Of a stretch of 41,331 bases of DNA, positions 1 through 40,711 are shown piece by piece. How positions within the stretch are numbered: position 1 is the stretch's first letter; every line of letters starts with the position of its first letter. The stretch is taken from IMG/VR virus record IMGVR_UViG_3300045988_081349, positions 1 through 41,331 of that record; one strand, given 5' to 3'. The notes beneath the pieces are model-generated. The model was not told the origin of the DNA. It saw only the letters and a program-made list of their open reading frames with translations, and made no database searches. The position numbers and the translations under genes are program-made. The stretch is from a virus.

Positions 1-45
1 TGACTTTTAATCAAGTTGTCCGGGGTTCGAATCCCCGATGCTTCA
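1..45 (+). tRNA. 3' portion (anticodon arm to discriminator) of tRNA-Lys(UUU); the 5' part lies upstream of the window
   Basis: The anticodon loop CTTTTAA (4-10) carries anticodon TTT at 6-8. It is followed by stem strand TCAAG, variable loop TTGTC, T-arm CGGGG-TTCGAAT-CCCCG (21-37), acceptor 3' strand ATGCTTC (38-44) and discriminator A45. The core GACTTTTAATCAA..GGTTCGAATCC matches canonical bacterial tRNA-Lys(UUU). CCA is not encoded. Confidence 0.8.
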
Positions 46-143: not shown

Positions 144-193
144 AATGTATCATTTTGGTGTCATGGAAGAGGTAATGTATCATTTTCGTATCA
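144..193 (+). promoter_or_regulatory. Two direct copies of a 20-bp motif, probable integrase arm-type binding sites (P' arm)
   Basis: AATGTATCATTTTGGTGTCA (144-163) and AATGTATCATTTTCGTATCA (174-193) lie 30 bp apart. A third copy, AATGTATCAATTTCGTATCA, sits at 41213-41232 next to attR. Confidence 0.6.
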
Positions 194-1294
194 CATCTCA
201 AAGGCTTTGTCTGCCGCTCCGGCAGCGTCTTCCTTATCCAGTACAATATGGTTATACACCTCCATGACCATCCTCTCGGTATCTCCCAACATCTCAGCAA
301 TCTTTTTGATGGAGATCATTGGTATCTGGTAGCAGAGGTTGGTGCAGTAATTATGCCTAAATACATGAGCGGTGAGACCTGTTATAGGCTCCTCAGAGAC
401 CGCCTGCATGGCTCTAATGATACGTGCCCACATCTTATCATAACTGCTCTTTGTGATAGGCTGACCGTTGCGCATGACAAAGAGCTGGCTGCGCTTTAGG
501 CTTTTAACATAAGCCTCAATGACCGGAAAGACTACTGCCGGTATAGGTACGGTTCTGTATCCATTATTTGTCTTTGGGCCTTTAGGCACGGGCTTGTCAT
601 TTACAAATCCTATGGCCTTGTTGACGGTCAATGTGCGCCGTTTGAGGTCTACATCAAATTTGGTGAGCGGCAGCGCTTCTCCACGACGCAGGCCGCAGCC
701 GAACAGAATATACACAAATACACGGTCCTGTGTGGATAACTCAGCTGAAAATAGAGCTTTCTGTTCATAATCCATGAGCGGTCGCTTCTCTGGCGGCCGA
801 TATTTGATTATGTCCATGTTAGCGAAAATATCCTCCATGACGTTGGCCGCAAAGAGCCGATCAGAGGCAGCGGAGCGCAATACCTGCTTAAAGGTGATCT
901 GGATTTGTTGCTGAGTGCGCTTTTTATCACTAGTGCTGGTCATTAGCATCTGATAATGTACTCGGCCTATGTCCTGCAGCTTGACGCCTTTTAAAATCAC
1001 AAAATGCTTGTCTATGATGTTTTTATACATTGCCTGAGTATTGGTCTCTTTCCCGGCCTTGTAGACATCCATCCACGCCTTTGCATAATCGTAAAAGGTT
1101 ATGTCTGATATACGCAGGTGTTTACGCATCTCCACGTCCTGAGCAAGCTGGTTGACCTTGTTTTCGAGGTCTTTACTACTCTTCTTCGACCGCAGCATGA
1201 TGTAATGTTTTGTGCCGTCATCGTTGTAACTGCCGTCCCAGACGCGTGTCTGAAAGTATCCGTTTTTCTGCTTGGTATATTTTGCTTTTGCCAT
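191..1294 (-). CDS. int: Tyrosine recombinase / phage integrase
   Basis: This is a 367-aa ORF with an AGGAGG RBS. Catalytic-type motifs are GLRRGEALPL (Arg), HVFRHNY (His-x-x-Arg) and MVMEVYNHI (Tyr). The N-terminus looks like an arm-binding domain. The gene is adjacent to the tRNA att site. Confidence 0.95.
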   Translation of the reverse strand: MAKAKYTKQKNGYFQTRVWDGSYNDDGTKHYIMLRSKKSSKDLENKVNQLAQDVEMRKHLRISDITFYDYAKAWMDVYKAGKETNTQAMYKNIIDKHFVILKGVKLQDIGRVHYQMLMTSTSDKKRTQQQIQITFKQVLRSAASDRLFAANVMEDIFANMDIIKYRPPEKRPLMDYEQKALFSAELSTQDRVFVYILFGCGLRRGEALPLTKFDVDLKRRTLTVNKAIGFVNDKPVPKGPKTNNGYRTVPIPAVVFPVIEAYVKSLKRSQLFVMRNGQPITKSSYDKMWARIIRAMQAVSEEPITGLTAHVFRHNYCTNLCYQIPMISIKKIAEMLGDTERMVMEVYNHIVLDKEDAAGAADKAFEM

Positions 1295-1449: not shown

Positions 1450-1477
1450 TTGACATTTTCGTATATTTTGCTATAAT
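1450..1477 (+). promoter_or_regulatory. Strong sigma-A-type promoter with extended -10
   Basis: TTGACA (1450-1455), a 16-nt spacer, then TGcTATAAT (1469-1477). Confidence 0.7.
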
Positions 1478-1483
1478 ATACTT

Positions 1484-1582
1484 AACAAGACAGCCGGAAG
1501 GTGAATGCACCTCACCCGCTCCGGCAAAAGATTAGTCTAAAAAATAGTCGTCAGCTTTTGCAGGGCAGGACGGCTATTTTTT
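1484..1582 (+). ncRNA. Candidate ~100-nt small RNA (possible type I antitoxin)
   Basis: The unit runs from the promoter at 1450-1477 to the bidirectional terminator at 1539-1582. It has an internal nested hairpin, GCCGGA-AGGTG-aatg-CACCT-cacccgc-TCCGGC (1493-1525). There is no RBS-led ORF. Its 3' end is antisense to the 3' end of the toxin-like ORF at 1574-1657. Confidence 0.4.
1539..1582. terminator. Bidirectional terminator hairpin shared by convergent units
   Basis: ATAGTCGTC (1544-1552) pairs with GACGGCTAT (1569-1577). An A-run lies on the left (1539-1544) and a T-run on the right (1577-1582). Confidence 0.7.
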
Positions 1583-1657
1583 ATGTGTATATTTAAGGAT
1601 GGATACAATTAAGCTGGCTGTTGTCAGTATAATCATAAGTTCCTCATATGTACTCAT
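1574..1657 (-). CDS. 27-aa hydrophobic peptide resembling the 'putative holin-like toxin' (Hol-Tox) small-peptide family; type I toxin candidate
   Basis: This ORF is too short for the ORF track. It translates to MSTYEELMIILTTASLIVSILKYTHKK, with RBS AAAGGGGTGG 6 nt upstream. It has the MS.YE.L start, one TM helix and a basic tail. Its stop codon lies inside the terminator stem. Confidence 0.6.
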   Translation of the reverse strand: MSTYEELMIILTTASLIVSILKYTHKK

Positions 1658-1763: not shown

Positions 1764-2816
1764 TTATTTGGGATTTGTATTTATTCCAGGAAAAAATATA
1801 CTTGCGCCAATACTACAACCACAAGTTGGGCATTTATGGTTATAAAGCATTGGTGGTAATTTAGGATATTTTTTATTCCATCCATAAAATGAATAAATCT
1901 TTCTATTGTATTTTTGACAAACTGGACATTGGCTACTTGTCACTATTAGTAATGTGTCTATTTTCCATTCCTTTATTTTGGGTAAAAGACGTTTAATGGA
2001 AATATTGTCAACATTCGACTTAAATATATGCCTAAACGTATTTTCATAACCTTCATAGGTAGGATTTTCCGTGTCAGATTCAGTTTCATTAACAATCGTT
2101 GTATTTTTAACTAATTGAACTAATTTATCTCTATCCCATAAAAGCACTCCATTTTTCTCTGCAAGTTCCCTGGCAGATTTGGTAAAATACCTATTAGTTA
2201 ATACGACGGCAACATGACACCCATAAAATGTCTTACCCGAAAAAGCTTCTTGTACAGCTTTATTTCCGATATCAGATGAGTAGCATTTGCACTGTATGCC
2301 GTATTTTATTCCCTCTTTATAAGCGATAATATCAATTCCTTGGTCTCCACTTCCTTTGGTTACTTCTACGTCTTCATATTCGTTCTTTTTTAAAATATCT
2401 GCACAAAAATATTCAAATTCATGGCCTTCCATAGCATCAAATGATTTTTGGCGACACTCTTTTGCAGAGTTTATTTCTGAATAGAAAGTTTTATTTTCGT
2501 TCGTCTTTGAATGTTTTGACTTTTGGGCTTTTCTGGGTTTCCACCAGAAATAGTATACTGCATTGGTAATAGCACCATAAATAAGGATTCCGAATATCAT
2601 TACAATAAGCCATTGATCGAAAGTGTGATTTTCAGAAAACAACATATAAAAGCTGTCTAAAATCCATAAAGCTATAACGATTTTAGTTGGCAAAGGCAAG
2701 AATTTACTTATTAAAACATTTTTGTTATGAGTATGGTGTATAATTTCCTCTCCGCATAATGGACACACTGGTTTATCAGTTTCCATACCACATTTAGGAC
2801 ATCTTAAGTGTTCCAT
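1764..2816 (-). CDS. Membrane-anchored Mrr-type (PD-(D/E)xK) restriction-endonuclease-domain protein with N- and C-terminal zinc ribbons
   Basis: The 350-aa product starts with CPKCG..(9)..CPLCG. Two hydrophobic helices follow (TKIVIALWILDSFYMLF and WLIVMIFGILIYGAITNAVYYFWW). The Mrr_cat-like core reads GSGDQGIDIIAY..GIQCKCY..VQEAF..VVLTNRYFTKSARELA. The C-terminus has CPVC..(24)..CPTCGC. Confidence 0.75.
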   Translation of the reverse strand: MEHLRCPKCGMETDKPVCPLCGEEIIHHTHNKNVLISKFLPLPTKIVIALWILDSFYMLFSENHTFDQWLIVMIFGILIYGAITNAVYYFWWKPRKAQKSKHSKTNENKTFYSEINSAKECRQKSFDAMEGHEFEYFCADILKKNEYEDVEVTKGSGDQGIDIIAYKEGIKYGIQCKCYSSDIGNKAVQEAFSGKTFYGCHVAVVLTNRYFTKSARELAEKNGVLLWDRDKLVQLVKNTTIVNETESDTENPTYEGYENTFRHIFKSNVDNISIKRLLPKIKEWKIDTLLIVTSSQCPVCQKYNRKIYSFYGWNKKYPKLPPMLYNHKCPTCGCSIGASIFFPGINTNPK

Positions 2817-2865
2817 ATATTTTTCCCCCTTTTTATAATACTTCTAAAAGTTGTAGTTATTAAAC

Positions 2866-3306
2866 CTATTTCAGACGCAACTCAATAAGTTCCTCTGGAT
2901 ATCCAGTACACTGACAAAATTGCTCACGGGTATATCCAGCATATTCTTGTAGCATATCATCGGCTATCAAGAGATAAGCCGCAAACTCATTGGCCTGGCG
3001 CTCTACGCGTGATGTAAGCAGTAGCGTGTGATGAGCCATAAAGCAACAGTTTTCTTTACAATGTAATAAAGCGTGTCCCAGCTCATGAGCCATTACGACC
3101 CTTAGCAGCACCTCATTGTCTAAGATATCTTCATTAATAAAAATCCATCGGATACGTTTCAGATATCGGTAATTCCCCAAAACATTCCCCATTGGAAGGA
3201 CTGCAATATGTATGCCCAGCATTTTTGCCATTTTCCAAGGGTCATTTGTTCCGCACAAGCGGATATAATAAGCGACAACTTTTTTAATATCATTGTTATA
3301 TGCCAA
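2866..3306 (-). CDS. ImmA/IrrE-family zinc metalloprotease (anti-repressor protease)
   Basis: The 146-aa product has the HEXXH motif in MAHELGHALLH. The gene lies immediately downstream of the XRE repressor in the same operon, the classic ImmR-ImmA arrangement. Confidence 0.85.
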   Translation of the reverse strand: MAYNNDIKKVVAYYIRLCGTNDPWKMAKMLGIHIAVLPMGNVLGNYRYLKRIRWIFINEDILDNEVLLRVVMAHELGHALLHCKENCCFMAHHTLLLTSRVERQANEFAAYLLIADDMLQEYAGYTREQFCQCTGYPEELIELRLK

Positions 3307-3316
3307 TTAAAATCAC

Positions 3317-3745
3317 CTACTTTTTGTTCTTGTACGGGTTGTATTTAACTTTATTCTCCTTCTTTGATTCTCTCAAAGCATACTCTATGGCATTTTCCAA
3401 AAGGATTAAAGACTTTTCGTCCATTTCAACACCATTGTAAAACAGTGGGCCGTCTTCTCCATTTCGTATTTCCTTCATTATTCGGTCTAAATCCCTCCCT
3501 ATTTCGCGTTCGTCTTTTGCGGTTAATTCAGCTTTAGTTGTCGAGATTTCCCTCTCTTCACCTGTCATTAAATAGTCAACAGTAACACCAAAATAATCGG
3601 CAATTGGTTTTATTTTTGATAAATTGGGGGCAGTTTTGTTTATTTTGCTGATGTATCCTTTACCAAAACCAAGTTGTTCTTCTAATGACTTGCTGGTAAT
3701 TCCGTTCTTTTTACATAGAAATTGAATTCTTTCTTTTACGTTCAT
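3317..3745 (-). CDS. XRE/CI-like phage repressor (ImmR-like)
   Basis: The N-terminal HTH reads KERIQFLCKKNGITSKSLEEQLGFGKGYISKI. The gene is divergent from a Cro-like gene. The ATG at 3745 is preferred over the TTG at 3760. Confidence 0.85.
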   Translation of the reverse strand: MNVKERIQFLCKKNGITSKSLEEQLGFGKGYISKINKTAPNLSKIKPIADYFGVTVDYLMTGEEREISTTKAELTAKDEREIGRDLDRIMKEIRNGEDGPLFYNGVEMDEKSLILLENAIEYALRESKKENKVKYNPYKNKK

Positions 3746-3767
3746 ATGGCCGCCTTTCAAAAAAAAG

Positions 3768-3845
3768 TTGCGAAAAAGCGCAAATTAAGCTTGACATTTG
3801 CCATAAAACGCGTATAATGAAATTAGAAGTTGCGATAAATGGCAA
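3768..3845. promoter_or_regulatory. Three operator-like 16-bp sites in the immunity intergenic region
   Basis: The sites are TTGCGAAAAAGCGCAA (3768-3783, a perfect 5-bp inverted repeat), TTGCCATAAAACGCGT (3798-3813, inside the promoter spacer) and TTGCGATAAATGGCAA (3830-3845). They are spaced about 30 bp apart. Confidence 0.55.
3791..3818 (+). promoter_or_regulatory. Rightward early promoter (PR-like)
   Basis: TTGACA (3791-3796), a 16-nt spacer, then TATAAT (3813-3818). Confidence 0.65.
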
Positions 3846-3973
3846 ATATAAAGAAAATGCGTTTGTATCTATTGTTGTGGTGACTTTATTTTACTATAAA
3901 TCGCAAAAAAAATCAATATAAATTTGTTATTTATCGCAAATTCATAAAATGCGCACAGAAAGGAGAGATGATA

Positions 3974-4165
3974 ATGGTTTATGATAACCTGAAAGAAATT
4001 TGCAAAGAAAAGCACATTACATTCCAAGAAATTGAAGTATTAGCAGGACTTGGAGCGGGGTGTATTAGCAGATGGAAAGATGGAAAAGTAAGCCCGAACA
4101 TGGATACATTAAAAAAAGTTTCGGGCGCAATAGGTGTTAAGGTTACAGACCTTATAAAGGAGTAA
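3974..4165 (+). CDS. Cro-like small XRE HTH protein
   Basis: The 63-aa product has the HTH HITFQEIEVLAGLGAGCISRWKDGK. AGGAG lies 8 nt upstream of the ATG at 3974; the ORF-track start at 3968 is too close to the RBS. Confidence 0.8.
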   Translation: MVYDNLKEICKEKHITFQEIEVLAGLGAGCISRWKDGKVSPNMDTLKKVSGAIGVKVTDLIKE

Positions 4166-4206
4166 CAGGTCGAAAAGTAAAGAATCTAAAAAAGGTGGAA
4201 AAATAA

Positions 4207-4500
4207 ATGAAAATCACAATCAATTTGGACGAGTGCCCATGTTCCGGCGTATCTCCCAATTATGTGTATCGTTCTTTGTATATGGAGTATTGGAGTAAAT
4301 TACAAAAAATATATCAAAATCATTTGTGGGGAATGGCAACAGTCTGTGATTCAACTGCCCGAGAACTATATGCGCAGAAGACTGGGCGAAGTAAGAATGT
4401 GAAAAATTTGATACTTACATATGCAGATGCTGAAGCTTGTTTTGAATTATTCAAACAGTTTGCGGACGTGTGGAGCAAGAATTGTTTGACAAATTGTTAA
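4207..4500 (+). CDS. Hypothetical early protein
   Basis: A 97-aa ORF with RBS AAGGTGG. No motif was recognised. Its 3' end abuts an out-of-frame HTH-tail remnant (see findings). Confidence 0.5.
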   Translation: MKITINLDECPCSGVSPNYVYRSLYMEYWSKLQKIYQNHLWGMATVCDSTARELYAQKTGRSKNVKNLILTYADAEACFELFKQFADVWSKNCLTNC

Positions 4501-4561
4501 TTCTGGCCGATTACTTCGGCGTGCCGATTGAGTATTTCTTGGAAGAATAGAAGGAGGTGGT

Positions 4562-4768
4562 GTGAAGGTGACCAGATTTGATTTATTAAAGCAGTGTGAT
4601 ATTGAGCTTGCTTCTAAACTCATATATGCGCTGGGAAGAAAATTTGAGAAATCCGATGAGCTCAAGTTACATTTACTTGAATTCGTGACAGAACAAGAGC
4701 TGCAGCGAATAAACGATGCAGCCCATATGGAAGGATATCAGCCATTATCCTTTTCTTTTAAGCAATAA
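4562..4768 (+). CDS. Cassette copy A, rightward ORF (hypothetical; paralog of 16842-17042)
   Basis: A 68-aa ORF with RBS AAGGAGG. An alternative GTG start at 4568 would give MTRFDLLK, matching MTRFEALK of the paralog. The ORF overlaps the convergent ORF by 31 nt. Confidence 0.65.
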   Translation: MKVTRFDLLKQCDIELASKLIYALGRKFEKSDELKLHLLEFVTEQELQRINDAAHMEGYQPLSFSFKQ

Positions 4769-4971
4769 TAACATCCGTTGCCTTTTTTGGATGGACATAA
4801 CATTGCCGCAGCAATAAGACAGTTCATATAGGAATCATCCACCCATATATGTTCGTGTTTAATATCGTCGATATGACAAAAATCGGTTTCATTATCTAAA
4901 TCATGGATTTCGCCGGTGTTTGTGTTGAGAAGATATCGTTTTCCATTATAAGGCGATTTGTAACGACGCAT
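4738..4971 (-). CDS. Cassette copy A, leftward ORF (hypothetical H/C/CxxC zinc-motif protein; paralog of 17012-17242)
   Basis: The internal start MRRYKSPYNGKRY has RBS GGAAAGGAG, giving 77 aa. About half the residues are identical by eye to the 17012-17242 product. Conserved elements are GEIHDLDNE, C.ID.IK and NGCYYC. The longer ORF-track version (to 5238) runs through the promoter and is rejected. Confidence 0.7.
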   Translation of the reverse strand: MRRYKSPYNGKRYLLNTNTGEIHDLDNETDFCHIDDIKHEHIWVDDSYMNCLIAAAMLCPSKKGNGCYYCLKEKDNG

Positions 4972-5290: not shown

Positions 5291-5505
5291 TGCACTACGC
5301 CACAATAAAAGACGCAGCCATATGCACTGCCATTGCTGCATCAACCGGATTCTGGCAACCCCGGGACGCACCGCAGGCAGTTATGTGTTACATATTTATA
5401 TTTGTGCTGCTGATGGTTGGATTTGAAGTAGCACGAGACCAAGGAAATAAGAGGAGGAAAAATCATGTACAAGGAAGAATTACAGGAAATATTAAAAAAG
5501 CATAA
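5290..5505 (+). CDS. Hypothetical small membrane protein
   Basis: The ATG overlaps the previous stop codon (TAATG). One hydrophobic helix is present ([15 protein letters not shown]). The ORF overlaps the next gene by 41 nt, so coding status is uncertain. Confidence 0.35.
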
Positions 5506-5893
5506 GAAATGGTTAGCCGGAGAAGATGGCGGTGTAAGAGCCGACCTGAGCGGAGCCGACCTGAGCGGAGCCGACCTGAGCGGAGCCGACCTGAGCGGAG
5601 CCGACCTGAGAGGAGCCGACCTGAGAAGAGCCGACCTGAGAGGAGCCGACCTGAGAAGAGCCGACCTGAGCGGAGCCGACCTGAGAGGAGCCGACCTGGA
5701 CTTTTCCTGCTGGCCATTGTGGTGTGGAGGTCTTGCGGTCAAGGTGTGCAAGCGTATTGCCGTGCAATTGGCATACCACTTTTGCAAGCTGGATTGTGAT
5801 GACCCAGAGTATATAGCGGCTCGTAATGCGATACTTGATTTTGCAAATCAGTTCCACCGCGTAGGTGAGTGCGGAAAACTAGAAAAAAGATAG
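5465..5893 (+). CDS. Pentapeptide-repeat protein (Qnr/MfpA-like fold class)
   Basis: A 142-aa ORF with RBS AGGAGG. About 11 consecutive ADL(S/R)(G/R) pentapeptides are present. The N-terminus [21 protein letters not shown] is typical of this family. Confidence 0.85.
5541..5700 (+). repeat. About 10.6 tandem copies of a 15-bp unit (CCGACCTGAGCGGAG and variants)
   Basis: The copies are near-perfect at the DNA level and in frame within the pentapeptide gene. All six frames are open across the repeat, which creates spurious ORFs. Confidence 0.95.
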
Positions 5894-12409: not shown

Positions 12410-13786
12410 ATGAGAGATTTGATTATAGATTGCTTCGCCGGTGGTGGCGGGGCAAGCGTAGGAATAGAGATGGCATTAGGCCGTCAGGTAGATATAGCGA
12501 TTAATCATGATGAGCAGGCCATAAGGATGCACAAAACCAATCATCCGGGCACATTGCATCTGACAGAGGATATTTTTAAGGTGGATCTGGAAAAGTATGT
12601 AAAAGGCCAGCATGTAGCGCTCATGTGGGCAAGCCCAGACTGTACCAGTCACAGCAAAGCGAAAGGTGGCGCTCCTATTAAGAGTGGCTTAAGGATTCTT
12701 CCGTGGGCTGTGCATAAACACGCTGTCAATATCAAGCCTGATGTAATTATCATGGAAAATGTAGAGGAGATACGCCAGTGGGGCCCATTAAATAAAAAAG
12801 GACGTCCAATAAAGAAAAAGAAATGCAAAGAGTATCAAAAGTTTATGAAAAAAATGTATCTTGCAGGATATGAAAAAATCCAAACAAGAGAACTTGTAGC
12901 AGCAGACTATGGAGCGCCGACAACTCGCAAGCGCTGGTATGCAATTCTTCGGCGGGATGGAAAGCCGATAATCTGGCCAGAGCCTACACACAGTAAAACG
13001 GGTAGTGACGGTAAGCAGAGATGGAAACAATGTGGAGATTTCATTGATTGGTCAGACCTCGGTAAGTCCATATTTGACCGTCCGAAACCGCTTGCAGATG
13101 CTACCATGAAAAGGATTGCTAACGGGTATGTTAAATATGTGGTAAACAATACAGAACCATATATGGTCAAAAGCAAAGACGCTGTTTCGTTTCTGATTCA
13201 ATACCACGGAGAAACAAAACTGGGAGATTCCAGGGGACAACTCCTGGCAGAACCAATTAAAACAATAGACACCAGTAACAGATATGGCTTGGTCACGGCA
13301 TTTATAACAAAGTTCTATAAAACAGGAATTGGACAAGGGTGTGACGAACCACTTCATACGATTACAACATCGCCGGGTCATTTTGGTTTGATTTCAGCTT
13401 TCCTGATTAAGTATTACGGAACAGGATGCGGCCAGGAACTTTCTTCTCCGCTTGGGACTGTAACTACCAAGGACAGGTTTGGCCTTGTGAATGTGGTCAC
13501 AGAAATAAATGGAGAAAAGTATATTTTGATGGATATATACCTTCGGATGCTCAAACCAGAGGAATTGAAGGTGATGCAGGGATTTCCGGTGGACTACATT
13601 ATTGACCGGGATCACGACTGGAAACCATATCCTAAATCGGAGCAGGTTAAACGTATTGGAAACAGTGTTGTACCAATCATGGCGGAGGCTTTGGTAAGCG
13701 CAAACTGCGGATATCTTAAAGTGGGAGAACGGCAGCCAGCGCCTACGATTTATGTACAGACGAATGGGCAGGTGGCGTTTGGATGA
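12410..13786 (+). CDS. DNA (cytosine-5) methyltransferase, orphan
   Basis: The motifs appear in canonical order: DCFAGGGG (I), SPDCTSHS (IV, catalytic Cys), IMENV (VI), QGFP (VIII), GNSVVP (X). No restriction enzyme gene lies adjacent. Confidence 0.9.
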   Translation: MRDLIIDCFAGGGGASVGIEMALGRQVDIAINHDEQAIRMHKTNHPGTLHLTEDIFKVDLEKYVKGQHVALMWASPDCTSHSKAKGGAPIKSGLRILPWAVHKHAVNIKPDVIIMENVEEIRQWGPLNKKGRPIKKKKCKEYQKFMKKMYLAGYEKIQTRELVAADYGAPTTRKRWYAILRRDGKPIIWPEPTHSKTGSDGKQRWKQCGDFIDWSDLGKSIFDRPKPLADATMKRIANGYVKYVVNNTEPYMVKSKDAVSFLIQYHGETKLGDSRGQLLAEPIKTIDTSNRYGLVTAFITKFYKTGIGQGCDEPLHTITTSPGHFGLISAFLIKYYGTGCGQELSSPLGTVTTKDRFGLVNVVTEINGEKYILMDIYLRMLKPEELKVMQGFPVDYIIDRDHDWKPYPKSEQVKRIGNSVVPIMAEALVSANCGYLKVGERQPAPTIYVQTNGQVAFG

Positions 13787-17332: not shown

Positions 17333-18946
17333 ATGAGGTGGGTACAAAAATTGAATGAAAGCATTAAGCGCGGCCTCAGAAGCTGGTTAAATGTAGTTCC
17401 TGCAAACCCGTACAGTATTCAGATAAATGAGGTATTGGACTTTGAGACCAATGCTATCCGTAACCGTATCTGGTACAGAGGTGATAGCAATGAGCTGGAG
17501 CAGATGTACCAGCAAAATCCAGAGTATGCGGATAAGTTTAAGTTTTGGGCCAGTAAATGTAGCCCTGGAATGGAAATGCGTAAAATCCATACCGGATTGC
17601 CGGGATTGATCGTACGTATATTGACCTCAGTCGTTTTGGCAGATATGAACGACTTTGAATTTGAGAATGCCAAACAGGAACAGCTCTGGAAAGAGATTGA
17701 GGAAGACAATAAATTTACAAAAAAGATGGAAAGGGCCCTGAAGGAAGTGTTATACATCGGGGACGGGGCTTTTAAAGTCACGATAGACACACAGGTAAGT
17801 GAGTATCCTATCCTGGAATGGTATCCGGGAGAACAGATAGAGATAGTCAGACGCCGGGACAGGATAAGTGAGGTGATATTTAAAACTCCTTACAAGGACC
17901 AAGGCAGGATGTATGTCCTCAATGAGCGCTATGGATACGGATACATCATCAATGAGTTGTACCTGCATGACAAGCTGGTTGATATCAAGTCAATCCCGGC
18001 TACAGCCAACCTGGCGGACTGGAAGTTTGATGAAAATATCATTCTAGCGGTGCCCCTGCAAATCTATGAATCAGCGAAATATGAAGGCCGGGGAGGCTCT
18101 ATTTTTGATGGAAAACTGGACAGCTTCGATGCATTTGACGAGGCATGGTCGCAGTGGATGGATGCACTCAGAGCCGGCAGGGCAAAAACTTATATCCCAG
18201 AATGTCTGGTGCCACACGATCCGGAGACAGGAAGGCTCATCAAGCCCAATATGTTTGACAACCGGTATTTTGCCGCAGACGGAGATATGCGTGACAAACA
18301 GCAAAATGTGATCAATACAGATCAGCCAATCATCCCCCATGAGAGTTATCTTGCAAGCTATGTCACAGCTCTGGATCTCTGCCTACAGGGGATTATCAGC
18401 CCCAGTACATTGGGTATTGACGTAAAAAAGCTGGACAATGCGGAAGCGCAGCGGGAAAAGGAGAAAGCCACTCTGTACACCAGGAACGCTATTGTGGAAG
18501 CACTACAGGAAACATTGCCTGATGTGGTGGCAACCTGCATCAATGCCTATCATGTGTTGATGAAAGAAACGATTGAGGATGTCAAGGTAAACATCCCATT
18601 TGGAGAGTACGCGAATCCGTCGTTTGAAAGCCAGGTGGAAACAGTTGGGAAAGCCAAAACACAGGGTATCATGAGTATTGAGCGCTGCGTTGAGGAGCTT
18701 TATGGTGACACACTGGATGAGCACTGCAAGCAGGAGGAGATAGCCCGGCTGAAAAAGGAACAAGGAATTGCCGAGGTGGAAGAACCGGGAATCAGGCAGG
18801 AAGCGGGAGGCTTCCAGATTGGAGGTTTGGATGAAGGTAAAAGTGGGGCCAAGAATATACCGGATGACCCGGAAGGAATACCAGGGGCTACTGGAGATGG
18901 CAAAGGAGCAGGTGCCAATGGGGATATACGCCCTGGAAAAGGCTGA
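17333..18946 (+). CDS. Portal protein (SPP1 gp6-like)
   Basis: A 537-aa ORF positioned after the terminase. It has a low-complexity Gly/Asp-rich C-terminal tail. Confidence 0.85.
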   Translation: MRWVQKLNESIKRGLRSWLNVVPANPYSIQINEVLDFETNAIRNRIWYRGDSNELEQMYQQNPEYADKFKFWASKCSPGMEMRKIHTGLPGLIVRILTSVVLADMNDFEFENAKQEQLWKEIEEDNKFTKKMERALKEVLYIGDGAFKVTIDTQVSEYPILEWYPGEQIEIVRRRDRISEVIFKTPYKDQGRMYVLNERYGYGYIINELYLHDKLVDIKSIPATANLADWKFDENIILAVPLQIYESAKYEGRGGSIFDGKLDSFDAFDEAWSQWMDALRAGRAKTYIPECLVPHDPETGRLIKPNMFDNRYFAADGDMRDKQQNVINTDQPIIPHESYLASYVTALDLCLQGIISPSTLGIDVKKLDNAEAQREKEKATLYTRNAIVEALQETLPDVVATCINAYHVLMKETIEDVKVNIPFGEYANPSFESQVETVGKAKTQGIMSIERCVEELYGDTLDEHCKQEEIARLKKEQGIAEVEEPGIRQEAGGFQIGGLDEGKSGAKNIPDDPEGIPGATGDGKGAGANGDIRPGKG

Positions 18947-19052
18947 TTACGCTGAATTGCGTAATGATCACTGCAAGAGTACCACACAGCTCAAGGCAAT
19001 GACGAGGCAGTTTAAAGCCCAAGGATTTAAGGTGATGGCCAATGGCAAATGA
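18831..19052 (+). CDS. Hypothetical 73-aa protein overlapping the portal 3' end in another frame
   Basis: GGAGG lies 5 nt upstream of the ATG at 18831. The stop overlaps the start of the next gene (ATGGCAAATGA). The sequence looks protein-like: IYRMTRKEYQGLLEMAKEQ... Confidence 0.55.
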   Translation: MKVKVGPRIYRMTRKEYQGLLEMAKEQVPMGIYALEKADYAELRNDHCKSTTQLKAMTRQFKAQGFKVMANGK

Positions 19053-20775
19053 TTATGACATCGGCAAAGCTTTTCAAGCCATTGAAGATGAGTTAATGGC
19101 TTCTATGGTTCGCAACATGAAACGCCATCGTGCATGGGAGGATGCGGAGGGAATGCACTGGGAGCAGTGGCAGGCTTTGCAGTTAAAATCCTTGGAAAGA
19201 TATAAACGTCAGAATAAAAAGCGTTTCCAGAGACAATTTAAGAGCATCAACAAAGAAATTGAATCATTGATCTATGCATCTCACGTACAGGGTGGCATGG
19301 ATCAGGAAATTAAAATACTACGTGCTATGCAGCGTGGGTACAAGTTTTCGCATATCCCCCAGAAAATGCTTGATCTGTTGGAAGAGATGGACGGAAAGTC
19401 CTTCCGCCAGAAGGCCAGCCTACTACTGGAAAAATACAAGGGCAGGGGGATGGCAAAAGAATCGGCGGAGTTTTTTAAGCTTAATGATCGAAAATTAGAT
19501 GCTCTCATCAAAGCCACCAAGAATGATATGCAGAAGGCTGAAACAGCAGTCCTGCGCATGGCCAATGACCAGTACCGGAAGGTCATATATAATGCCCAGG
19601 TTTACGCTAACACCGGCGCAGGCACCTATGAGAAGGCCGTGGATATGGCTACAAAAGACATGTTGTCTGCCGGGTTAAATTGCGTTGAGTACGCCAATGG
19701 AGCCAGGCACACGCTGTCTGACTATGCTGATATGGCGATCAGGACAGCCAGCAAGCGGGCATACCTGCAGGGTGAGGGCCAGAAACGGCAGGAGTGGGGG
19801 CTACATCTGATCATCATGAATAAACGGGGAAACCCATGTCATAAGTGTCTACCCTTTGTGGGTAAGGTGCTGATTGATGATGTCTGGAGCGGCGGGAGCA
19901 AGGCAGACGGCAATTATCCACTTATGAGCTCTGCCATATCTGCAGGACTGTATCATCCACGGTGCAAGGATAGCCATACTACATACTTTCCAGGCATCAG
20001 CACTCCCCCGGATGATAAGTTCAGCAGGCAGGAGCTGGCAGATATTGAGGAGCAGAGTAAACAGGAGGCTAAGCAGCAGTATGCCACACGACAGCATGAT
20101 AAATTTGGAAGGCTGGCAAAGTATTCTTTAGACAAGGACAATCGAAAAGAATATAAGAGAAAGGCTGCTGATTGGAAAGATAAAATCCTTGGAAGGTTTA
20201 CTGTGGACGACAAGATTAAAGACCATAGAACTGATACACCTCAGAAAATGGTTGATTTGGTGGAGCAGTATACGCAAGATGATTTTGTGGAAGTGAATTT
20301 AGGAGCCACTGATGCCTTTGCTTATGATCCGGATAGGGATATAGTTACCGTAAATCCAAGCCACCCCATGTATGAGGTATATGATTACCACGAAACCATG
20401 ATACATGAAATAGCACACAGGATTGACCAAAGTGAAATAGGCAGTCCGATGAATGCAGAATTTAGTGAAGCAATTAAGAATGCAGAAAAAAAGATTATGG
20501 ATAAAACAAGTGATTACGAGAAATCATTTGCCCCGGGTGGAGATCTGGAGTATAATAATCTTATAAGTGATATTTTTAGTTGCATAACAGATAATGAAGT
20601 ATCAGGAGCGTTTTATCACGAGTCAGAATATATTGGAATACCCGGATATACTGAATTGGAAGTTTTTGCGGATATGTTTTCTATCTTGTATCAGGGTGAT
20701 AATAAGTCTGTTGATTTTATTAAAAAAGAATTTCCAGATTTGTATGAGACCTTTATGAATTTTTTTAAGAGGTGA
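19042..20775 (+). CDS. MuF / SPP1 gp7-family head morphogenesis protein fused to a C-terminal HExxH metallopeptidase-like domain
   Basis: A 577-aa ORF. The MuF-like part contains NPCHKCLPFVGKVL and YHPRCKDSHTTY. After a charged linker, the AT-rich C-terminal ~190 aa carries TMIHEIAHRID and a downstream ELEVFADMF (an anthrax-LF-like HExxH...E.FA..F pattern). Confidence 0.75.
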   Translation: MANDYDIGKAFQAIEDELMASMVRNMKRHRAWEDAEGMHWEQWQALQLKSLERYKRQNKKRFQRQFKSINKEIESLIYASHVQGGMDQEIKILRAMQRGYKFSHIPQKMLDLLEEMDGKSFRQKASLLLEKYKGRGMAKESAEFFKLNDRKLDALIKATKNDMQKAETAVLRMANDQYRKVIYNAQVYANTGAGTYEKAVDMATKDMLSAGLNCVEYANGARHTLSDYADMAIRTASKRAYLQGEGQKRQEWGLHLIIMNKRGNPCHKCLPFVGKVLIDDVWSGGSKADGNYPLMSSAISAGLYHPRCKDSHTTYFPGISTPPDDKFSRQELADIEEQSKQEAKQQYATRQHDKFGRLAKYSLDKDNRKEYKRKAADWKDKILGRFTVDDKIKDHRTDTPQKMVDLVEQYTQDDFVEVNLGATDAFAYDPDRDIVTVNPSHPMYEVYDYHETMIHEIAHRIDQSEIGSPMNAEFSEAIKNAEKKIMDKTSDYEKSFAPGGDLEYNNLISDIFSCITDNEVSGAFYHESEYIGIPGYTELEVFADMFSILYQGDNKSVDFIKKEFPDLYETFMNFFKR

Positions 20776-39865: not shown

Positions 39866-39877
39866 GAGGTGGCATTG

Positions 39878-40711
39878 ATGAGCGATAAACTTGCTGCTAT
39901 ATACATAAGAGTGAGTACACTAGACCAGGCCAGGGAGGGATACTCCCTGGAGGCCCAGGAAGAAACTTTGCGCAAGTGGTGCAAAGACCATAAATATGAG
40001 GTATATGATCTATATGCAGACCGTGGTATATCGGGAAAAGATATAGACCATAGGCCAGACATGCGCCGATTGCTACTCGATGCTAAGGCAAATAAATTCG
40101 GTGTGGTAGTCTTTTGGGCTTTGAGTAGGTTTACCAGATCTGTATCCGACCTCTATCATACAATGGAGGTACTGCAGTCGCACGGAATTGGCATGGTATC
40201 ATATACAGAGGCTTTTGATACATCGACTCCTATGGGACGTGCTATGTTCGGGGTCGTTGGCGTGTTCGCCCAGTTGGAGCGTGAGCTCACAGGAGAGCGT
40301 GTGCGAGCTGCAATGCTGGTACGCGCTGAACAAGGTAAGAGGACATGCTCCGAAATACTAGGTTATGATATCAATGGGAAAGATAGTTTTAAAATTAATA
40401 AAAAAGAGGCAGAATATGTAAAATTTTGCTTTGAAAAATATCTTGTCTACAAGAATCTCAGCCAAGTAGCAGAAATATGCCGCAAGCTGGGGTATAAAGG
40501 AAAACGCGGGAAAGAGCCAACGGCATATACGGTATATGTCATCCTCACAAGGCCGCAGTATTGTGGATATAACACATACTGCGGGAATATATACAAGGGA
40601 AATTACGAGCCATTAATAAGCGTCGAAATCTTTAACAAGGTGCAGCGCCTATTGAAGATGCAAGGCAAAATTGTTGGCAGAAACCGTATCAAACCGATAT
40701 CTGGGATATAA
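39878..40711 (+). CDS. Serine recombinase: resolvase catalytic domain plus 'recombinase' domain, lacking the zinc-ribbon/coiled-coil C-terminus of large serine integrases
   Basis: AAIYIRVSTLDQ provides the catalytic Ser. SGKDIDHRPDMRRLL and FAQLERELTGERV are also present, followed by the recombinase-domain pattern ILGYD...YVILTRPQYCGY...YEPLISVEIFNKVQ. The ORF ends at 277 aa, where the zinc ribbon normally begins. Confidence 0.8.
   Translation: MSDKLAAIYIRVSTLDQAREGYSLEAQEETLRKWCKDHKYEVYDLYADRGISGKDIDHRPDMRRLLLDAKANKFGVVVFWALSRFTRSVSDLYHTMEVLQSHGIGMVSYTEAFDTSTPMGRAMFGVVGVFAQLERELTGERVRAAMLVRAEQGKRTCSEILGYDINGKDSFKINKKEAEYVKFCFEKYLVYKNLSQVAEICRKLGYKGKRGKEPTAYTVYVILTRPQYCGYNTYCGNIYKGNYEPLISVEIFNKVQRLLKMQGKIVGRNRIKPISGI

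Follow-up and report, generated by a model that had tools for sequence, protein, structure and literature searches.

The defence system Zorya brings about local degradation of entering phage DNA. Sie2009 of lactococcal phages and Ltp of the Streptococcus thermophilus phage TP-J34 are small, non-enzymatic proteins that block the injection of DNA and are encoded between integrase and repressor. Epona is a single-gene defence from a chromosomal-integron cassette of Vibrio cholerae and was shown to be protective in Escherichia coli (bioRxiv 10.1101/2024.07.02.601686). Here we analyse a gene that shares features with these systems. It is located at 1764..2816 (minus strand) of the IMG/VR virus record IMGVR_UViG_3300045988_081349, of which positions 1 to 41,331 were analysed as a whole and are called the window in the following. 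The window is a Blautia prophage, and the gene is a complete one that encodes four modules: a zinc ribbon, a hairpin of two transmembrane (TM) helices, an Mrr_cat nuclease domain and a domain resembling the core of the MuF virion proteins.

We found the MuF-core-like domain and the membrane Mrr nuclease again, as modules in changing combinations, between the repressor and the integrase gene (of the tyrosine or the serine type) of many prophages of gut Firmicutes. We propose that the protein is a membrane-tethered nuclease, expressed in lysogens, which serves in superinfection exclusion or anti-phage defence and uses the MuF-like module for targeting or sensing; we give this proposal an even chance. 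Prophage defences shape the spread of phages in the human gut, and to our knowledge almost none encoded by prophages has been characterised in Lachnospiraceae. A preliminary description of the locus, made from the DNA letters alone, had seen a candidate single-gene defence or exclusion factor in the gene, and this interpretation as a whole is partly supported by our data.

Domain architecture of the prophage protein

The nuclease domain (aa 127-235; 2112..2438, minus strand) matches the Pfam family PF04471 with E=1.4e-31 and 109.4 bits (cutoff 21), over positions 2-114 of the 115 model positions, which is far above chance. This bears out the Mrr_cat-like PD-(D/E)xK core that had been read from the sequence before, in motifs that correspond to aa 155-166, 173-179 and 204-215. 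The residues E135, D158, D162, Q175 and K177 (the last two as Q175-x-K177) are kept in 49-50 sequences of a 56-row alignment (A3), where the rows without them are gaps contributed by nuclease-free proteins that have the C-terminal domain only. Going by general knowledge of the Mrr family, we take these E..D..(Q/E)xK residues to be the catalytic ones. The AlphaFold model shows a restriction-endonuclease-like fold, with a predicted local distance difference test score (pLDDT) of 94-98 over the domain. Foldseek matched it in the PDB to AF1548 (1Y88, E=6e-5), MspJI, AspBHI and the nuclease domain of Avs4 (8dgf), with probabilities of 0.99-1.0, and further to Cdn1, EcoT38I, Hjc and Can2. The preliminary description had named a lack of profile support for a nuclease fold as a refutation of its reading; the matches show the opposite.

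Judged from its sequence, the protein belongs to the Mrr_cat family, retains all active-site residues and is presumably an active nuclease. Pfam scans of the protein revealed no Mrr_N, SRA-like or other modification-reading domain at E<=0.1. As Mrr_N is absent, the protein does not classify as an Mrr-type Type IV enzyme.

The C-terminal module (aa 262-350; 1767..2033, minus strand) follows an acidic interdomain linker of low model confidence (aa 236-261; 2034..2111, minus strand; pLDDT 48-55). It is a predicted zinc-binding domain (C297, C300, C329 and C332), and its cysteines 297, 300, 329, 332 and 334 form the pattern CPVC-(28)-CPTCGC. The preliminary description had recognised both motifs and a separate domain here; it gave the spacing as 24, the only inaccuracy among its observations, and took the domain for a second zinc ribbon, while profiles and fold point to a core like that of MuF, or minor capsid protein 2. 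Direct scans of aa 262-350 against Pfam, NCBIfam and PHROG returned only sub-threshold zinc-ribbon noise, and the domain of our protein does not match PF06152 itself, even at E<=10. A word-index search for homologues with this domain found two proteins only, whereas an exhaustive search with a hidden Markov model (HMM) recovered 151 cluster representatives at E<=1e-3.

Among 62 excised domain sequences, 29 match PF06152, 'Phage minor capsid protein 2' (best E=2.4e-15). This family is the MuF2 branch of the MuF superfamily as defined by Jamet et al. (PMC5576092). Moreover, hhalign aligned 74 columns of the domain to residues 246-326 of the MuF2 protein of the same phage (probability 88.8%, E=2.5e-6). 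Both have in common the features EW..(D/H)L.I, C..C....GK(V/I), YP.L, (C/H)P.C and (Y/F)FPGI(S/N)T.P. From the alignment of these 62 sequences, AlphaFold produced a model with a pLDDT of 89. Neither a sequence-profile search of the PDB nor Foldseek against the PDB gave a match for the domain, and no solved structure of it seems to exist. In BFVD, nearly all top matches of the model were models named 'minor capsid protein', 'MuF-like' or 'head morphogenesis', with probabilities up to 1.0 and TM-scores of 0.57-0.61. By these three independent lines, namely profile, hhalign and predicted fold, the domain derives from the conserved MuF core and has diverged from it.

The best-studied relative, gp7 of SPP1, binds the portal and DNA and aids the initiation of infection (PMC5576092, PMC6316719). 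Most muf genes lie directly 3' of the portal gene, and a portal or terminase gene is found nearby in 85-87% of cases (PMC5576092). The window phage conforms to this rule with its canonical MuF2 minor capsid protein (19042..20775, plus strand; PF06152 with E=8.4e-34; phrog_581, minor head protein), which is encoded directly 3' of the portal gene (17333..18946; phrog_533); the matches to phrog_581 and phrog_533 have E=2e-102. The nuclease gene, in contrast, is located 14.5 kb away from the portal gene, on the opposite strand and within the lysogeny module. Hence, the protein holds a homologue of the MuF core yet is not a MuF virion protein, since its position is wrong and only the core is present. 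A packaged head protein is impossible, given that the core is joined to a nuclease and to a segment that anchors it in the membrane.

The MuF2 protein itself is extended at its C-terminus by a part that has an HExxH motif and weakly matches the zincin-like MPTase-PolyVal domain, which suggests that it may be a 'polyvalent' protein delivered along with the DNA. An ADP-ribosyltransferase fold was also considered for MuF; this idea was dropped, since no structure of such an enzyme was matched and the paper on polyvalent proteins speaks only of a virion-associated domain.

At the other end of the protein, a C4 zinc ribbon (aa 1-25; 2742..2816, minus strand) is formed by C6, C9, C18 and C21 in the arrangement CPKCG..CPLCG. 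It gave sub-threshold matches to Zn_ribbon_3 and DZR and a match to a Nop10-type ribbon at E of about 1e-3, and is modelled with a pLDDT of 86-94. The following membrane hairpin (aa 42-90; 2547..2693, minus strand) consists of hydrophobic helices at about aa 42-60 and 69-87 on the Kyte-Doolittle scale, with peaks of 1.73 and 2.08, and of helices 42-59 and 66-103 in the AlphaFold model (pLDDT about 95). The leftward open reading frame (ORF) of 350 aa, the N-terminal ribbon and the two hydrophobic helices described previously were thus confirmed by the ORF listing, by hydropathy and by the model. The Pfam scan yielded a weak match to DUF6681 on the TM region and none to the holin families.

The loop SENHTFDQ on the outside of the hairpin is short, acidic and devoid of lysine and arginine. 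A basic juxtamembrane linker (aa 91-125; 2442..2546, minus strand) follows the hairpin; 10 lysines or arginines are found in the 34 residues behind the second helix (aa 92-125), of which residues 106-121 are modelled with a pLDDT below 50. Because of this distribution (none in the loop against 10 in the linker), the positive-inside rule predicts that the ribbon and all parts beyond the hairpin are cytoplasmic. This topology is consistent with the zinc-cysteine motifs at both termini, and it supports, as a prediction, the membrane-tethered nuclease that the preliminary description had postulated, with the active domain in the cytoplasm.

The ORF, which starts with ATG, is a real gene. An identical protein is deposited at NCBI as 'MULTISPECIES: restriction endonuclease [Blautia]' and occurs on 204 contigs. 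A strong Shine-Dalgarno sequence, AAGGGGG, can be read 5' of the start codon (2825-2831, minus strand), within the gap of 49 nucleotides that separates the stop codon of immA from the gene.

Genomic position and relatives

In the window, the genes of the leftward unit are arranged in the order repressor, immA, nuclease gene and integrase. We found the same slot, repressor-(ImmA)-[TM-Mrr]-(0 or 1 gene)-integrase, in each of the six close relatives that were looked up (P0001, P0003, P0012, P0070, P0118 and Roseburia phage Jekyll). It is kept even though the early regions differ and the integrases belong to different types, with a tyrosine integrase next to P0001 and a large serine integrase next to P0003. 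At two further loci, the Mrr gene is located between the helix-turn-helix (HTH) gene and immA (L055) or overlaps immA (L041). The place between int and ImmA/ImmR in the same orientation, as stated in the preliminary description, was therefore found again in the close homologues.

Our search recovered 3691 relatives of the protein. Many domain architectures share the nuclease core, at about 60-84% identity. In P0003, a full-length orthologue (52% identical), all four modules are present. Other relatives consist of a zinc ribbon-2TM-Mrr (P0005, P0013), a zinc ribbon-TM2-Mrr (P0070) or a DUF4236-TM2-Mrr arrangement (P0054). The nuclease can also be combined with parts of FtsK, as in TM-Mrr-FtsK_gamma-Mrr (P0016), Hjc/Mrr...Mrr-FtsK_gamma (P0027) and FtsK_alpha-zinc ribbon...Mrr (P0085). 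In the arrangement zinc ribbon-2TM-Mrr-L12_CTD-like (P0025, P0002), the C-terminal tail is a different one; P0002 is 82% identical to our protein over the part that aligns.

The MuF-core-like domain is equally mobile. It is N-terminal in P0012 (domain-TM2-Mrr), and in P0122, encoded after an HTH gene, it follows a TM2 anchor without any nuclease. In P0174, whose gene is flanked by an HTH gene on one side and a serine integrase gene on the other, it is joined to a TM segment and an RNase_T exonuclease. It stands alone in P0123, whose gene comes after those for an HTH protein, a 137-aa protein and a TM2 protein, and in L107, where its gene lies between the repressor and immA. In P0146 the gene is located directly 3' of an HTH gene and 5' of a BrnT toxin gene. 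Four IMG/VR contigs show HTH-ImmA-[MuF-core-like domain]-integrase layouts, including stand-alone forms of 85-95 aa. Of the 12 contexts examined for the close family of the domain, to which our protein, P0003 and P0012 contribute, 11 were lysogeny modules, and none placed the domain beside a portal gene.

Two observations extend this picture. A tail like the L7/L12 C-terminal domain is present in P0002, P0025, P0124 and P0139, so that close relatives exchange the MuF-core tail for an L12-like one; some small proteins join the MuF core and the L12-like tail, and both modules belong to one shuffling network. In addition, a sizeable family (P0136, P0146, P0167, P0151 and others; locus L102) combines the MuF-core-like domain with a conserved N-terminal region, YDMDSLEGI..IPVP..LQRKATEHKKN.R.DLAIACLRKSN, which is weakly TPR-like and at times accompanied by zinc ribbon or TM2 anchors.

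The nuclease core was also surveyed by ORFs and HMMs at 80 loci in species-representative genomes. Here, flanks with both an HTH gene and an integrase (integrase within 3.5 kb) were seen at only about 14 of the 80 loci. The enrichment of homologues beside integrases thus holds for the closest relatives, six out of six, and does not hold for the nuclease-core family as a whole. Acetatifactor, Kineothrix and other Lachnospiraceae conserve a short paralogue of the core (L060-L101, e.g. L074, L075 and L082).

The first gene of the leftward unit encodes an HTH repressor of the Xre/cI type (3317..3760, minus strand; HTH_19/HTH_3). It is followed by the ImmA-like Peptidase_M78 gene (2866..3306, minus strand; PF06114, E=1.7e-14), directly 5' of the nuclease gene. 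A cro-like HTH gene is divergently oriented (3968..4165, plus strand; Pfam scan), and the region in between, 3761-3967, contains divergent promoter-like sites on both strands, with a perfect consensus on the plus strand at 3791-3818. The gap between immA and the nuclease gene contains a weak promoter-like site (2863-2835), and the only strong minus-strand terminator downstream of the nuclease gene lies at 1357-1333. From this layout of genes, promoters and terminators, we infer that the nuclease gene is co-transcribed with immR-immA.

The GC content of the gene is 32.5%, against 45% for the window. The AT-richness noticed before is hence real; since the whole block 1764-4800 (ImmA, ImmR, the cro-like gene and early genes) has a GC content of 35%, it is a trait of the lysogeny module and extends beyond the nuclease gene.

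The tyrosine integrase gene (191..1294, minus strand; PF00589) lies next to a 3' fragment of a transfer RNA (tRNA) gene, which is cut at the edge of the window (1-45, plus strand; Rfam tRNA, 32.3 bits) and is presumably the attachment site. Host genes follow directly beyond the integrase in L001 and L002, two metagenome contigs with the identical protein. Between the nuclease gene and int we noticed a hydrophobic ORF of 27 aa, MSTYEELMIILTTASLIVSILKYTHKK (1574..1657, minus strand), with its own Shine-Dalgarno sequence. It matches the Pfam family Hol_Tox with E=2e-4 and 21.6 bits, just below the cutoff of 23.3. A perfect TTGACA-16-TATAAT promoter (1450-1477, plus strand) faces this ORF from the opposite strand, and a hairpin with T-runs on both strands (1546-1575) overlaps its stop codon. 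The arrangement of 1450-1657 is typical of a type I toxin/antisense-RNA module; among the known antitoxin RNAs in Rfam, none matched the putative antisense RNA.

Beyond the cro-like gene follow YqaJ/RecT-type early genes, the terminase, portal and MuF2 genes, and genes for a collagen-repeat protein and a lysin. In its early region, the phage also encodes a C-5 cytosine DNA methylase (12410..13786, plus strand; PF00145, E=8.7e-25). We considered a restriction-modification-like pair of this methylase and the nuclease and rejected it, since the two genes are 10 kb apart, belong to different transcription units and show no comparative linkage. The early-region ORF 5465..5893 (plus strand) contains a run of pentapeptide repeats, and its counterpart in L001 has a weak match to the Pentapeptide family of Pfam. 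Near the right end of the window, 39869..40711 (plus strand; 280 aa as listed) encodes Resolvase and Recombinase domains; it may represent a second integrase, belong to an adjoining element or have been truncated.

Possible roles of the protein

If the protein serves in superinfection exclusion or anti-phage defence, it may work as follows. Encoded in the repressor/ImmA unit, it would probably be made continuously in lysogens, as the gene order suggests. The two-helix hairpin would anchor it in the cytoplasmic membrane, where the ribbon, the nuclease and the C-terminal domain are predicted to face the cytoplasm. The nuclease would cut foreign DNA at the site of membrane entry, the most plausible substrate being the entering genome of a superinfecting phage. 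The MuF-core-like domain may direct or activate the nuclease by binding DNA or the portal/MuF component of the invader, and the tether together with the requirement for a ligand would keep the nuclease off the host chromosome. A role for 'DNA at the membrane' fits the family, because its other accessory domains either bind DNA or stem from translocases (FtsK gamma and alpha, a second Mrr or Hjc), or are membrane anchors. The shuffling of modules appears to be modularity of the conflict type, which also supports an anti-phage role.

Several observations weigh against this proposal. The matches in PADLOC and Pfam stay within the nuclease domain plus linker. A nuclease that faces the cytoplasm would have to spare the DNA of host and prophage, and the ligand proposed for the MuF-core-like domain is speculative. 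At about 35 of the 80 surveyed loci the nuclease core belongs to the short Mrr_cat paralogue, which has about 150 aa and one TM helix and is 53-62% identical in the core. Its neighbours are genes for an FGGY sugar kinase, ribulose-5-P epimerase, transketolase and ABC-transporter/FtsX proteins, with no mobile-element genes nearby. The nuclease-core family is therefore not confined to prophages, and given this chromosomal paralogue in a housekeeping neighbourhood, a non-defence cellular role for the family has to be reckoned with.

The genomic context adds to these doubts. In a census of the 136 immediate neighbours at 39 species-representative loci with longer versions of the protein, Xre/cI-type HTH proteins (17) and site-specific recombinases (9) were the most frequent, followed by ArdA, S24 and M78 peptidases and transposases. 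No restriction-modification, abortive-infection or other defence family was among the top 25 neighbour families. The context is thus one of mobile-element regulatory modules, not of classical defence islands. Finally, a frameshifted copy of the gene exists (P0121), so that the gene is dispensable in at least some strains.

The main rival explanation regards the protein as an abortive-infection effector: the MuF-core-like domain would sense a late phage protein, most plausibly the portal, upon which the nuclease would attack all cellular DNA and the cell would die before progeny are made. The portal is the known partner of MuF/gp7 (PMC5576092, PMC6316719). Avs4, of which the portal-bound structure 8dgf is one of our structural matches, links portal recognition to an Mrr-like nuclease, and a sensor module would suit the forms of the domain that stand alone or have exchanged their effector (Mrr, RNase_T, TM2 only). 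However, the portal and MuF2 of the resident phage itself would cause self-killing upon induction unless the specificity has diverged, and such a mechanism needs no membrane tether. Overall, we regard it as rather unlikely.

The protein might also act in the life cycle of its own phage or in the ImmR/ImmA switch, for instance through the processing of DNA at induction, the breakdown of host DNA or the control of ImmA, without any part in defence. The linkage to immR/immA is very tight and recurrent, the gene being found at times inside the operon; stand-alone MuF-core proteins between repressor and immA (L107) and the homology to MuF2, a virion protein of the phage itself, point in the same direction. 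A function of this kind is nevertheless distinctly improbable: otherwise similar lysogeny modules vary strongly, in that ImmA or the nuclease may be missing and tails are swapped, the allele P0121 is frameshifted, and a membrane anchor is hard to square with a role in excision or replication.

More improbable still is a membrane-bound, Type IV-like restriction enzyme that depends on modification and cuts entering DNA with foreign modified bases in the manner of E. coli Mrr, MspJI and AspBHI. Mrr_cat, MspJI and AspBHI are indeed the top matches in sequence and fold, and the database label reads 'restriction endonuclease', but neither Mrr_N nor an SRA-like reader domain is present, and the C5-cytosine methylase of the phage (12410..13786) would create self-targets if 5-methylcytosine were recognised. 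It is very improbable indeed that the gene is a toxin or addiction element stabilising the prophage, or a decaying passenger without function, as might be suspected from the toxin/antitoxin labels given to flanking genes by the annotators of Roseburia phage Jekyll, the Hol-Tox type I toxin-like module right beside the gene and the frameshifted copy, because no cognate antitoxin is evident and phages with different integrases have conserved the catalytic residues and the full architecture in proteins that are 52% identical, which argues for purifying selection.

A broader idea, which we put forward as a doubtful one, concerns the MuF core itself. MuF/gp7 is thought to exit the capsid along with the genome. 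Temperate phages of gut Firmicutes may have domesticated the MuF/gp7 core as the recognition module of immunity proteins encoded in their lysogeny operons, which would be membrane-anchored and carry swappable effectors (an Mrr endonuclease, a DEDD exonuclease or none). Such a protein would recognise the complex of portal, MuF and DNA end of a superinfecting phage and then destroy the entering genome or poison head assembly. If this were true, it would be a family of phage-derived 'molecular mimic' sensors that is so far undescribed.

Whatever its role, the modular family is widespread: one nuclease core is combined with many accessory domains, and many prophages of the gut carry a member within the repressor operon. 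The re-use of the MuF core in lysogeny modules offers a testable handle on how lysogens recognise an incoming phage and on what the MuF domain binds.

Comparison with described systems

In PADLOC, the best match for the nuclease domain is ZorD of Zorya type I, an SNF2 helicase with a C-terminal Mrr-like nuclease (E=2.6e-20). The match is confined to model positions 933-1067, which represent the nuclease. Our protein has no helicase, no ZorA, ZorB or ZorC genes accompany it (its neighbours are immA and int), and anchor and nuclease are united in one small polypeptide; judged from its domains, it is not ZorD. The likeness to the membrane-associated ZorAB apparatus is conceptual only. Four HMMs of PDC-S02, an untried single-gene 'phage defence candidate' of PADLOC, also match the protein (best E=1.1e-16). 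The match spans aa 99-237 (139 of 350 residues) and model positions 164-307 (143 of 334), that is the nuclease and linker only. The N-terminal 160 positions of the model are unmatched, as are the ribbon, TM hairpin and C-terminal domain of our protein.

E. coli Mrr, MspJI and AspBHI belong to the same catalytic domain family and share the fold, but our protein is anchored in the membrane (as predicted) in place of having an N-terminal domain that reads modifications. With Sie2009 and Ltp it has in common the genomic slot, the orientation along with the lysogeny genes and a predicted association with the membrane; unlike these, it has a nuclease domain whose active site is intact. The MuF virion proteins (PF04233 MuF1 and PF06152 MuF2, e.g. 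SPP1 gp7 and Mu GpF) are related through the C-terminal 89 aa, which by profile and predicted fold are homologous to the MuF2 core. They differ in that our protein has only the core of about 80 aa, below the Pfam threshold, and is encoded in a lysogeny module, not next to a portal gene.

The preliminary description did not recognise the domain combination as a named system. This has to be revised, since the basic combination of two TM helices and Mrr_cat has a validated representative in Epona and PDC-S02 matches the nuclease part. Compared by description, not by sequence, Epona likewise unites Mrr_cat and a two-TM domain in one polypeptide and is the closest validated analogue. Its membrane part is described as a 'holin' domain, and neither a zinc ribbon nor a MuF-like domain is described for it; moreover, Epona comes from an integron cassette in Gammaproteobacteria, whereas our gene is located in a prophage lysogeny module of Lachnospiraceae. 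Should our proposal of an anti-phage nuclease be correct, the protein would be a minimal, one-protein analogue of the membrane-linked, DNA-degrading defences Zorya and Epona. A membrane-anchored Mrr nuclease is thus of a kind already known, while the co-opted MuF core that recurs in lysogeny modules is genuinely new.

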